IMG/VR virus record: IMGVR_UViG_2563366924_000005
Coordinates: 1-40,849 of that record
Origin: a virus
Lineage: Duplodnaviria > Heunggongvirae > Uroviricota > Caudoviricetes
Reading direction: 5' to 3' (one strand)
Length of the DNA: 40,849 bases
Position 1 is the first letter of the stretch. Every line of letters begins with the position of its first letter. A program made the translations under genes and the position numbers. This document shows positions 1 through 40,849 of the stretch, piece by piece. The notes beneath the pieces are model-generated. The model made no database searches, had not been told where the DNA came from, and saw only the letters and a list, made by a program, of their open reading frames with translations.

Positions 1-933
1 ATGGACAACGACAAAATTGATCAACACAGCGACGAAATTGAAGTTGAGAGCGAAGAAAAAGAGCGCGGCAAAAAAATAGAAATAGATGAAGACCGACTCC
101 CCTCCCGGGCGATGGCAATTCATGAGCATATCCGCCAGGATGGTGAAAAAGAGCTGGAACGCGACGCAATGGCGCTACTGTGGTCAGCCATTGCGGCGGG
201 TCTGTCGATGGGCGCTTCGTTACTGGCAAAAGGGATATTTCATGTCGAACTGGAAGGTGTGCCGGGCAGCTTCTTACTGGAGAATCTCGGTTATACCTTT
301 GGTTTTATTATCGTCATAATGGCCCGCCAGCAATTATTTACCGAAAACACCGTGACTGCGGTACTACCCGTCATGCAAAAACCGACAATGAGCAACGTTG
401 GCTTACTTATGCGGTTATGGGGAGTCGTGCTGCTGGGTAATATTCTCGGGACTGGTATTGCTGCGTGGGCATTTGAATATATGCCTATCTTCAATGAAGA
501 AACTCGCGATGCATTTGTCAAAATCGGCATGGATGTGATGAAGAACACCCCCAGCGAGATGTTTGCCAACGCGATCATTTCCGGCTGGCTGATCGCCACT
601 ATGGTATGGATGTTTCCTGCAGCAGGTGCGGCAAAGATTGTGGTGATTATATTGATGACCTGGCTTATTGCCCTGGGTGACACCACCCATATCGTGGTCG
701 GTTCTGTTGAAATCCTCTATCTGGTGTTTAACGGTACGCTGCACTGGAGCGATTTCATCTGGCCCTTCGCACTACCTACTTTAGCGGGGAACATCTGCGG
801 CGGCACCTTTATCTTCGCGTTAATGAGTCATGCACAGATTCGTAACGACATGAGCAACAAGCGTAAAGCAGAAGCACGCCAAAAAGCAGAACGTGCGGAA
901 AACATTAAGAAAAATGATAAAAACCCGGCATAA
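1..933 (+). CDS. yfdC: Formate/nitrite-transporter-family inner membrane protein YfdC (host gene flanking argW)
   Basis: 310-aa ORF from window start with several hydrophobic helices; N-terminus MDNDKIDQHSDEIEVESEEKERGKK recognised from memory as E. coli YfdC; sits immediately upstream of tRNA-Arg as in E. coli. Confidence 0.8.
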   Translation: MDNDKIDQHSDEIEVESEEKERGKKIEIDEDRLPSRAMAIHEHIRQDGEKELERDAMALLWSAIAAGLSMGASLLAKGIFHVELEGVPGSFLLENLGYTFGFIIVIMARQQLFTENTVTAVLPVMQKPTMSNVGLLMRLWGVVLLGNILGTGIAAWAFEYMPIFNEETRDAFVKIGMDVMKNTPSEMFANAIISGWLIATMVWMFPAAGAAKIVVIILMTWLIALGDTTHIVVGSVEILYLVFNGTLHWSDFIWPFALPTLAGNICGGTFIFALMSHAQIRNDMSNKRKAEARQKAERAENIKKNDKNPA

Positions 934-1008
934 ATGGCGAGGGTTTAAGCAATCGAGCGGCAGCGTACTTACCCCGCACTCCATTAGCGGGTATACTCAT
1001 GCCGCATT

Positions 1009-1083
1009 GTCCTCTTAGTTAAATGGATATAACGAGCCCCTCCTAAGGGCTAATTGCAGGTTCGATTCCTGCAGGGGACACTA
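1009..1083 (+). tRNA. argW: tRNA-Arg (anticodon CCU), argW; integration target, forms attL
   Basis: Cloverleaf readable by eye: acceptor GTCCTCT/AGGGGAC, anticodon stem AGCCC/GGGCT with loop CTCCTAA (anticodon CCT), T-arm GCAGG-TTCGATT-CCTGC, discriminator A at 1080; the three bases after it (1081-1083) read CTA, not an encoded CCA. Confidence 0.85.
1054..1069. repeat. 16-nt segment of argW T-arm (ttgcaggttcgattcc), left copy of a direct repeat; candidate att core
   Basis: Exact 16/16 match to 40614-40629 (18/19 including one mismatch to the left); lies in the tRNA 3' half next to the integrase gene. Confidence 0.6.
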
Positions 1084-1244
1084 TTTATCAGTTCGCTCCC
1101 ATCCGTACCAGTACGCAAAATCCCCTGAATATCAAGCCTTCCGTAGATTCACAGTTCGTCATGGTTCGCTTCAGATCGTTGACAGCCGCACTCCGTGACG
1201 GGTAAAAAGTGGATAAAATAATTTTACCCACCGGATTTTTACCC

Positions 1245-2423
1245 ATGCTCACCGTTAAGCAGATTGAAGCAGCAAAGCCGAAAGAAAAACCATACCGCCT
1301 TCTCGATGGTAATGGCCTGTACCTTTATGTCCCTGTATCCGGGAAAAAGGTATGGCAGCTTCGCTACAAGATTGACGGTAAGGAGAAAATCCTGACTGTC
1401 GGAAAATATCCGCTTATGACTTTGCAGGAGGCAAGGGATAAAGCATGGACTGCGAGGAAAGACATCTCGGTTGGCATAGATCCGGTAAAAGCGAAAAAGG
1501 CTTCGTCTAACAACAATTCCTTTAGTGCCATTTACAAGGAATGGTACGAGCACAAGAAGCAAGTGTGGTCTGTAGGGTATGCGACTGAACTTGCCAAAAT
1601 GTTTGATGACGACATTTTACCCATCATCGGCGGTCTCGAGATTCTGGATATTGAGCCGATGCAACTGCTGGAAGTAATCCGCAGATTTGAAGATCGCGGT
1701 GCAATGGAGCGAGCCAACAAAGCCCGCAGAAGATGCGGCGAGGTTTTCCGTTACGCTATTGTCACTGGTAGGGCTAAATATAACCCGGCACCTGACCTTG
1801 CTGACGCCATGAAGGGATACCGCAAGAAAAACTTCCCGTTTCTTCCTGCAGACCAGATCCCGGCATTTAACAAAGCACTGGCAACATTTTCAGGAAGCAT
1901 CGTATCGCTCATTGCGACCAAAGTTTTACGCTACACAGCCCTAAGAACAAAAGAGCTTCGTTCCATGCTATGGAAGAACGTCGATTTTGAAAACAGGATT
2001 ATCACCATCGACGCCAGTGTGATGAAGGGACGCAAAATTCATGTGGTTCCTATGTCAGACCAGGTGGTTGAACTTCTCACTACGCTAAGCTCAATCACTA
2101 AACCAGTATCAGAGTTTGTTTTTGCCGGTCGCAACGATAAGAAGAAGCCAATCTGCGAGAACGCGGTATTGCTTGTGATCAAACAAATTGGCTATGAGGG
2201 TCTGGAAAGCGGTCACGGATTCAGGCATGAATTCAGCACGATTATGAACGAGCACGAATGGCCTGCTGATGCTATTGAAGTGCAACTGGCACATGCCAAC
2301 GGCGGATCTGTGCGCGGGATTTACAACCATGCTCGGTATCTCGATAAGCGCAGAGAAATGATGCAGTGGTGGGCGGACTGGCTTGATGAAAAGGTGGAGT
2401 GTTCCACCTTAACTATCGAATGA
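1245..2423 (+). CDS. intS: Tyrosine integrase, IntS-type (KplE1/CPS-53-like), transcribed away from argW
   Basis: ORF 1209-2423; from MLTVKQIEAAKPKEKPYRLLDGNGLYLYVPVSGKKVWQLRYKIDGKEK the protein matches my recollection of E. coli IntS; C-terminal HxxR...Y catalytic region (GHGFRHEF...RGIYNHARY); ATG at 1245 preferred, GTG at 1209 possible. Confidence 0.85.
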   Translation: MLTVKQIEAAKPKEKPYRLLDGNGLYLYVPVSGKKVWQLRYKIDGKEKILTVGKYPLMTLQEARDKAWTARKDISVGIDPVKAKKASSNNNSFSAIYKEWYEHKKQVWSVGYATELAKMFDDDILPIIGGLEILDIEPMQLLEVIRRFEDRGAMERANKARRRCGEVFRYAIVTGRAKYNPAPDLADAMKGYRKKNFPFLPADQIPAFNKALATFSGSIVSLIATKVLRYTALRTKELRSMLWKNVDFENRIITIDASVMKGRKIHVVPMSDQVVELLTTLSSITKPVSEFVFAGRNDKKKPICENAVLLVIKQIGYEGLESGHGFRHEFSTIMNEHEWPADAIEVQLAHANGGSVRGIYNHARYLDKRREMMQWWADWLDEKVECSTLTIE

Positions 2424-2492
2424 CACAAATCCTTGCAATCCAGTGCAAAGCTTTGTGTAAGAGCATCTTGTTGTTTTAATTAACAAATAAAC

Positions 2493-4575: not shown

Positions 4576-5454
4576 TCAGTAGTTATGTACTGAAGGAGGT
4601 AATTCTTTATTCTTAAGTCTCATCCATGCGGAAAGATTCGTTGGTCCGTCTGGCTCATTGATATCAACATCTCGTGTGTGATTGATTAAAACGTCTCTCG
4701 CCATTCCGATAACATACGAGAATTCATGACCGTAGTCGTAGCATCTGCCGGAATAGTTCGATTGAATTTGTTTCAGCGCCGGATACAGTTCGCGGAATAA
4801 TGCCTGTGAGCGGTTAGCATAATCCCATAGCCATACAAGGCTGTTTGCTTCTTTTGCAGAAAGCTCGTTGACTTTCCTCTCTTGTTTGCCGATGAACTCT
4901 CCTTCAAGCACTACCCTGTGGATGTACTCTACGGCCAGCGGGATTTGTTCAATTGAAAGTTCATCAATGCTGTCAATACCAAAACGCTGATGAACCATAT
5001 TGTATGCATCGTCATAGCGAAGTCCTTTCTTTCCTACCAGCATGTTTACTGCATCGCGTAGCGGCGTTCTTTCCTCAACAGTGGTTTTCTTGCCTTTCAC
5101 ATACTCGCCATGTTTGCGAATTGAAGGTAGAACTTCTGCTGTTACCCACTTGCGGAATTTGTGCGGGACCGAACCTTTATTGACAGCATCGCGGCAGCGC
5201 AGAACCAATGTATACATACCTGATTCGCTAACAATGCTTAGATTCTGCTCACCACCAAGGGTGTAACTTAAAGTTACTCCCTTTTCATCGTCATCAAGTG
5301 CAGTAAGCGCCTTGCGTGAGTTAGTCAGGGTTAAAGCATCACAAACATCTTTTGCTACAAACCACGGCTCACCGCATTTGTTGATGACGCGGATTTCACT
5401 GTCGCCGAATTTGAAGATGGTGAAATCGTTTTGTGCCTTTGCTATACTTTTCAT
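4576..5454 (-). CDS. ant: Antirepressor Ant (Bro-N/AntA N-terminal domain)
   Basis: ORF 4576-5520; likely start at [11 protein letters not shown] (ATG 5454) with AGGAAA ribosome-binding site; [30 protein letters not shown] is a Bro-N-type motif; immI position next to arc and tailspike as in P22. Confidence 0.75.
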
Positions 5455-5516
5455 GTCAATATTTCCTAATCCGATTTGTTGATACCGAAGCCCTGACTGT
5501 TCCCGCAGTTGGGGCT

Positions 5517-5690
5517 TCAACTTTTTGCTAGATTACCTTTAGAACTATCCCGCCTTAAACTATCCACTAACCGCATTACCATCTCGGTATTTATTGAGCG
5601 ACCATTTTCTTTCGCTGACTTCTCGATTGCTAACTTAACCTCTAATGGGATGCGCAAAGGGTACTTTGGTGCGTCTGACTTGACTATCAT
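5517..5690 (-). CDS. arc: Arc-like ribbon-helix-helix repressor
   Basis: 57 aa from ATG at 5690 with GGAGG 5 nt upstream; ...[29 protein letters not shown] resembles P22 Arc (..REVLDLVRKVAEENGRSVNSEIYQRV..); directly upstream of ant. Confidence 0.75.
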
Positions 5691-24617: not shown

Positions 24618-24692
24618 TGGCGGGACAGCGTGGACTCGAACCACGATAAGAAGGTTAACAGCCTTCCGTAATGACCTTTATACGACTGACCC
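24618..24692 (-). tRNA. tRNA-Asn-like gene (anticodon GTT) between Q and the lysis genes
   Basis: Minus-strand read GGGTCAG-TC-GTAT-AAAGGTCA-TTAC-G-GAAGG-CTGTTAA-CCTTC-TTAT-CGTGG-TTCGAGT-CCACG-CTGTCCC-G-CCA: perfect anticodon and T arms, U33, GG in D-loop, encoded CCA; one T-T mismatch each in acceptor and D stems; 4-nt variable loop. Confidence 0.5.
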
Positions 24693-40613: not shown

Positions 40614-40629
40614 TTGCAGGTTCGATTCC
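40614..40629. repeat. Second copy of the argW T-arm 16-mer (ttgcaggttcgattcc), 19 bp upstream of the torI start codon
   Basis: Exact match to 1054-1069; the flanking sequence is not tRNA-like (followed by ctattcggagatagcactc-ATG). Confidence 0.6.
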
Positions 40630-40648: not shown

Positions 40649-40849
40649 ATGCAACACGAACTACAGCCTGATTCACTGGTTGATTTGAAATTCATCATGG
40701 CTGATACTGGCTTTGGTAAAACCTTCATCTATGACCGGATTAAGTCCGGCGACCTGCCAAAAGCCAAAGTTATCCACGGGCGAGCAAGATGGTTATATCG
40801 TGACCATTGTGAATTCAAAAATAAGCTCTTAAGCCGCGCCAATGGGTAA
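40649..40849 (+). CDS. torI: TorI excisionase / recombination directionality factor
   Basis: 66 aa, MQHELQPDSLVDLKFIMADTGFGKTFIYDRIKSGDLPKAKVIHGRARWLYRDHCEFKNKLLSRANG, recognised as E. coli TorI; winged-helix excisionase; window ends at its stop codon. Confidence 0.9.
   Translation: MQHELQPDSLVDLKFIMADTGFGKTFIYDRIKSGDLPKAKVIHGRARWLYRDHCEFKNKLLSRANG

Follow-up and report, generated by a model that had tools for sequence, protein, structure and literature searches.

A private C-to-T substitution in the attL core of an IntS/TorI-type prophage leaves argW without an encoded CCA end

Analysis of the window, a 40,849-nucleotide stretch of viral DNA from IMG/VR record IMGVR_UViG_2563366924_000005, reveals a tRNA-Arg(CCU) gene, argW, in which the discriminator base is followed by CTA instead of CCA. 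The reading that we favor, with a probability of about 70%, is that the T at position 1082 is a genuine private C-to-T substitution at base 14 of the attL core of an IntS/TorI P22-like prophage, that the argW transcript would be trimmed and then repaired by CCA addition, and that recombination would be little affected. The system is well known, the CTA end being a private allele of it, and there are clear precedents for CCA-less argW genes.

The gene itself is well defined. ARAGORN called tRNA-Arg(CCT) at 1009–1081, and the Rfam model RF00005 matched over its full length at 1009–1080 with 63.4 bits (gathering score, 29), the match ending on the discriminator A. Together with the same bases in argW of K-12 and BL21, these calls place argW, from base 1 to discriminator A73, at 1009–1080 on the plus strand. 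Upstream lies the host flank with yfdC (1–933, plus strand), a 310-residue ORF collinear with the annotated yfdC of K-12, BL21, and ABWA45. Read directly, positions 1070–1083 are TGCAGGGGACACTA. Window 1009–1081 is the same as argW in K-12, BL21, and 13C1065T, with the identity starting before the tRNA start, and at the position of the window CTA these three sequences, as well as CUS-3 and HK620, have CCA. The cloverleaf with the acceptor stem and discriminator of a canonical E. coli tRNA gene is present in argW, and the genomically encoded C74-C75-A76 of such a gene is absent. tRNA positions 74 to 76 (1081–1083, plus strand) read C-T-A, as established by sequence comparison and an independent re-assembly; C74 and A76 are kept and C75 is replaced by T (ACTA), so that no CCA is encoded. 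The original prediction, that CTA follows an intact acceptor strand and discriminator, was exact, and the sole change relative to K-12, BL21, and 13C1065T is the C-to-T at 1082, which is tRNA position 75. Folding of the tRNA together with its trailer gave nothing notable (z = −0.96), and no terminator-like site was found nearby downstream of argW.

The altered base lies within a prophage attachment site. The KplE1 prophage is bordered by a duplicated 16-nucleotide core, CTGCAGGGGACACCAT (PMC2951348), and the feature annotated as the attP core in HK620 maps to window 1069–1084. The published KplE1 core and the HK620 mapping together define the attL copy at 1069–1084 on the plus strand, which reads CTGCAGGGGACACTAT, matches the canonical core at 15 of 16 bases, and has T1082 as its base 14. 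Adjoining it is the P' arm of attL (1085–1244, plus strand), collinear with the attL of K-12 and the attP of HK620. The arm overlaps the intS promoter region and contains a promoter-like site at 1195–1222, in keeping with KplE1, where the intS promoter overlaps attL (PMC2951348). Two variants were noted in the arm, A1113, which is private, and G1195, which is rare. The integrase gene intS follows at 1245–2423 on the plus strand, adjoining attL and transcribed away from the tRNA; it encodes a 392-residue tyrosine integrase with the Pfam domains Arm-DNA-bind_3, Phage_int_M, and Phage_integrase. The excisionase gene torI, encoding the recombination directionality factor, occupies 40649–40849 on the plus strand at the far end of the prophage, just inside attR. 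The DNA there is the same as that annotated as torI in ABWA45, and the window ends with the torI stop codon. With integration in the 3' end of argW and a duplicated core (15/16 in attL, 16/16 in attR), this arrangement of sequence features identifies the stretch as the attL of an IntS/TorI prophage of the KplE1-HK620-Sf6-CUS-3 type in argW.

To which side of the junction the T belongs can be read from the two prophage ends. Window 1–1081 is 100% identical to ABWA45, the nearest relative of the int region among complete genomes, and the first difference falls at 1082, followed by others at 1113, 1146, 1153, 1170, and 1195. The attR was found in the source genome (GCA_000351345.1, scaffold KB732598.1), 74 nucleotides after torI and thus beyond the window end. 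It reads GTAGATGT-CTGCAGGGGACACCAT-CCTTGTG, followed by the dsdC-side host flank, with all 16 core bases canonical and CCAT retained. Because host identity stops at 1081 and attR keeps CCAT, T1082 is placed on the phage-derived side of the attL junction. This upholds the part of the original prediction in which a phage-supplied arm replaces the host 3' end; what did not hold is that the arm as such accounts for the CTA, since in all the other E. coli phages of this family that were sampled the arm supplies CCAT and the T is a private mutation. A T in attL and a C in attR, the pattern expected for a T on the P' side of strand exchange, are equally compatible with arrival of the T in attP and with its later origin in attL.

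The only repeat that could have suggested an attR inside the window is a 16-mer of the argW T-arm, TTGCAGGTTCGATTCC, at 1054–1069, which recurs exactly at 40614–40629, 20 nucleotides upstream of the torI start; it is not the recombination core, and an attR within the window was rejected. In argW, this 16-mer directly abuts the true att core, and in the phage about 295 nucleotides, including torI, lie between the two. Both ABWA45 and HK620 retain the 16-mer, and in HK620 it shares bases with a promoter annotated as the cII-activated "phage integration" promoter. In the GenBank record of CUS-3, the 16-mer is given as the attL/attR core, so that torI falls beyond the limits of the prophage as annotated. 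From its sequence and placement, the 16-mer might be what remains of a longer, tRNA-like ancestral attP.

The prophage is a full-length mosaic P22-like genome. Its IntS is identical to that of K-12 at 383 of 385 positions, and the stop codon TGA has become TGT (window 2400–2423), which adds the seven residues CSTLTIE and accounts for the length of 392 rather than 385 residues. The T at 2402 was found in some comparators too, the Q364R substitution (position 2335) is private, and the exact window IntS protein was present in one NCBI contig only. Several further features were observed along the prophage. A tRNA-Asn(GTT) gene on the minus strand (24618–24692; Rfam, 55.3 bits) encodes CCA, unlike the rebuilt argW. 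A full-length match to the sar RNA (RF00262, 71.6 bits), the antisense RNA of P22 immI, lies at 5456–5522 on the plus strand and overlaps the start of a minus-strand ORF of 314 residues, to which the Logan gene call assigns Bro-N and P22_AR_C domains. The early region contains exact tandem duplications of 18 and 21 nucleotides, at 28899–28934 and 30503–30544, with a cluster of 47-nucleotide imperfect repeats nearby (30569–30720). In ABWA45 (NZ_CP022154.1, 3563003–3638200), the distance from attL to the torI-attR end is about 75 kb, and the argW locus of that genome is probably a composite or tandem insertion, not one 40-kb prophage.

To place the CTA allele among known sequences, large collections were searched. 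A 53-mer with 26 nucleotides on each side of the T, designed so that a megablast seed is possible only when the T is present, was compared with 5,426 complete E. coli genomes and 50,697 phage records and matched none of them. Likewise, no full-length match to a 44-mer with CTA at its end was present among 5,425 complete E. coli genomes, whatever the occupancy of argW. Exact-pattern scans of IMG/VR for the CTA form gave no match, and the CCAT form, used as a positive control, gave at least 120. Prophage-free argW, as represented by one empty site examined at the level of single bases, agrees with the original prediction: this site, in BL21, where argW lies beside dsdC, reads CCA, and no complete E. 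coli genome has CTA. A metagenome search for the CTA form returned one match, in a diverged relative from a different host genus. Metagenome contig Ga0308161_1016108 (L046) carries at 480–1837 an IntS-type prophage, its integrase 82% identical, adjoining an Enterobacter-like argW; its attL, ...GGGGACACTAT, is the only other CTA found in the collections searched.

The same searches give a background against which the substitution can be judged. An attL and intS of the window type occur in about 1,700–1,860 complete genomes, and C75 does not vary across the more than 1,700 E. coli attL copies compared, while positions in the adjoining arm do. This invariance hints at purifying selection, so that T1082 could carry a cost. 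Four private positions (1082, 1113, 2335, and 2430) fall within window 1070–2430, compared with a median of one among 108 comparators, 12% of which have four or more. A raised load of private mutations in the recombination module was rejected on these counts, by which T1082 belongs to a small set of ordinary private substitutions.

An argW gene without an encoded CCA is found elsewhere in the species. In E. coli CE0021a (L004, NZ_CP119006.1, 3070–3200), a different island has rebuilt argW as ...GGGGACAC-TTTAAAG, with no encoded CCA, and the gene is annotated by PGAP as a 72-nucleotide tRNA-Arg. The integrase of this island is a 424-residue tyrosine recombinase about 30% identical to IntS. The CE0021a-type junction, ACAC-TTT, is present in 62–72 of the 5,426 complete E. 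coli genomes. In CE0021a and the other E. coli genomes examined, the CCA-less argW is the sole copy of the gene, and an argW probe found a single matching place in all but one of 5,425 genomes. The expectation in the original prediction that E. coli tRNA genes normally encode CCA thus stands for K-12 and fails for the genomes that carry this island.

CCA-less forms are also present outside E. coli. In 39 Enterobacterales species representatives from GTDB (L007–L045), including Enterobacter, Klebsiella, Citrobacter, Kluyvera, Lelliottia, and Rosenbergiella, the 3' end of the tRNA-Arg(CCU) gene is ...GGGGACAC-T(T/C/A), and CCA is not encoded. Integrated islands were considered as the cause at these loci and set aside for most of them: a match to, or a remnant of, IntS or the CE0021a integrase lay downstream in 4 of the 39, several loci having short downstream sequence only. 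Of five neighboring proteins assessed with Pfam, four were ordinary and not integrases (a DosC-like GGDEF diguanylate cyclase, Mqo, the type VI secretion protein VasL, and a periplasmic binding protein), and the fifth matched no family. Judged from these loci, the CCA-less argW appears to be native in several Enterobacterales genera.

What the substitution would mean for the tRNA can be reasoned from known biochemistry. All tRNA genes of E. coli K-12 encode CCA, and loss of cca has only a mild phenotype; RNase T is halted by C residues at the 3' end, and repair of shortened ends by the CCA-adding enzyme is well established (PMC5824355, PMC6468291, PMC2241853). The argW precursor of this strain would read ...A73-C74-U75-A76-UUUAUC... 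and would lack the CC stop signal. The 3' exonucleases, mainly RNase T, RNase PH, and others, would be expected to trim it to ...A73-C74, an end that is expected because RNase T is blocked by a 3' C. The CCA-adding enzyme would then add C75 and A76, as in normal end repair, to give a normal tRNA-Arg(CCU). By this route argW would still be functional but dependent on cca, and the dependence on repair, which the original prediction had proposed, is a sound inference from what is known of these enzymes.

The main competing view is that T1082 inactivates argW, in that the ...ACUA precursor would be neither matured nor charged, AGG would be read only by the argU tRNA-Arg(UCU), and argW would persist as a tolerated pseudogene. 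The tRNA of argU can read AGG, and loss of argW could accordingly be tolerated. That C75 does not vary in any other E. coli attL copy suggests selection and also speaks for inactivation, as does the lack of a nearby downstream terminator-like site, which would leave a long trailer that takes several processing steps to remove. However, the tRNA body is unaltered, the CCA-adding enzyme is well known to repair shortened ends, and CCA-less argW genes persist both in the E. coli genomes with the CE0021a-type junction and in the 39 other species; that such a gene is the sole copy in the E. coli genomes examined argues for maturation. We consequently consider inactivation of argW unlikely.

A second alternative is that it is the prophage, not the tRNA, on which the T has its effect. 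Either the difference between the attL core and the attR core would make excision by IntS and TorI less efficient and so help to lock the prophage in place, or the T would be a transmissible attP allele. The two cores do differ at base 14 of 16, the published model stresses core identity (PMC2951348), and the integrase copy carries both the stop-loss extension and the private Q364R. The effect on excision would depend on where the strands are exchanged, and the overlap is not located in the open-access papers on KplE1. In the attP of HK620, imperfect inverted repeats, GATGTC and GACACC, can be read directly on either side of TGCAGGG, and TGCAGGGGACAC is the only block common to all att sites of the family. 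Because of these repeats and the family-wide block, we placed a putative 7-bp overlap region, TGCAGGG, at 1070–1076, and a putative phage-side (C') core-type half-site for IntS, GACACTAT, which includes T1082, at 1077–1084, neither with an assigned strand.

With this placement, T1082 would lie in the C' half-site and outside the 7-bp overlap, and integration and excision would be little affected. Related IntS-type sites carry a T at the same core position, reading CTAT in L046, CTTG in Chronis, CTTA in RCIP0114, and CTTC in Rosenbergiella L011, and these relatives have integrases 67–82% identical or int-region DNA about 76% identical to that of the window. In addition, no second lysogen with the T and no free phage with it was found in the collections searched, and the count of private variants is unremarkable. 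An effect on the prophage is therefore improbable, and recombination is probably little affected by T1082, as judged from the symmetry of the site. With excision, the T would go with the phage in attP, and CCA (CCAT) would be restored at the host site. If base 14 were instead inside the overlap, the heterology between attL and attR could strongly reduce excision. The version in which the T is carried by attP and is transmissible, such that each lysogen would receive CTA and its tRNA-Arg(CCU), and with it AGG decoding, would become dependent on cca until excision restored CCA, we hold to be very improbable. If true, the phage would be imposing on a rare-codon tRNA a handicap, or a control point, that could be reversed; in a possible related scenario, the core mismatch would throttle excision.

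The sequencing error that the original prediction had allowed for is unlikely. The Logan re-assembly of SRR647274 (L171), made from raw reads, matches the window at 5,423 of 5,423 bases, T1082 included, and reproduces the private A1113 and the private base at 2335 as well. A matching Logan contig was reported for four samples, which may not be independent as isolates. The context of T1082, GACACCATTT, contains no Dam (GATC) site, no Dcm (CCWGG) site, and no homopolymer run on direct reading, and the large prophage ORFs are uninterrupted, which indicates that the sequence is not of low quality. Although the evidence concerns one base in one strain only, these observations make it most improbable that the true base is C and argW canonical.

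Taken alone, the trimmed and CCA-repaired argW that we favor matters little, being the outcome of a single private base change in a well-characterized attL, a consequence that the host should be able to repair. It does illustrate that the 3' end of a prophage-occupied tRNA gene is phage DNA and evolves with the phage. The textbook rule that every tRNA gene of E. coli encodes CCA is true for K-12 and fails for the species: roughly 1% of complete genomes, and many related species too, have a CCA-less argW. In this strain, maturation of a chromosomal E. coli tRNA from a gene with a C75U change could be followed in a natural setting.

Comparing the window with known systems, the closest counterpart is the KplE1 (CPS-53)/HK620/Sf6/CUS-3 module, with which the prophage shares both the target gene and the 16-nucleotide core. 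The KplE1/HK620-type layout is also common to both, running from argW through the core, the P' arm with the intS promoter, and intS to torI at the far end, with attR 74 nucleotides beyond. Unlike the KplE1/HK620 module, the window has the T-bearing attL core and an argW rebuilt without C75. Compared with K-12, in which KplE1 is a 10-kb remnant and IntS lacks the seven-residue C-terminal extension, the window prophage is complete in length and its IntS is extended. The CE0021a-type island resembles the window in being an integrated element that rebuilds argW without an encoded CCA. However, it uses another integrase family member and another arm, the lack of CCA is usual for the element rather than a private point mutation, and the replacement takes in A76 as well as C75. 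The T of the window is shared by contig L046, which reads CTAT, and by the Klebsiella phages Chronis and RCIP0114. In other Enterobacterales the CCA-less end looks native, whereas in E. coli the empty site of BL21 has CCA and the CTA form is absent from the complete genomes. Finally, CCA-less precursors are processed in other systems. The tRNA precursors of phage T4 that lack CCA are trimmed with the participation of RNase BN before CCA is added. For these T4 tRNAs in E. coli, as for many B. subtilis tRNAs, the expected route would be the same as that proposed here, namely removal of the trailer followed by enzymatic addition of CCA. Unlike them, the argW of the window keeps C74 and an out-of-place A76, and we infer that only CA would have to be rebuilt.
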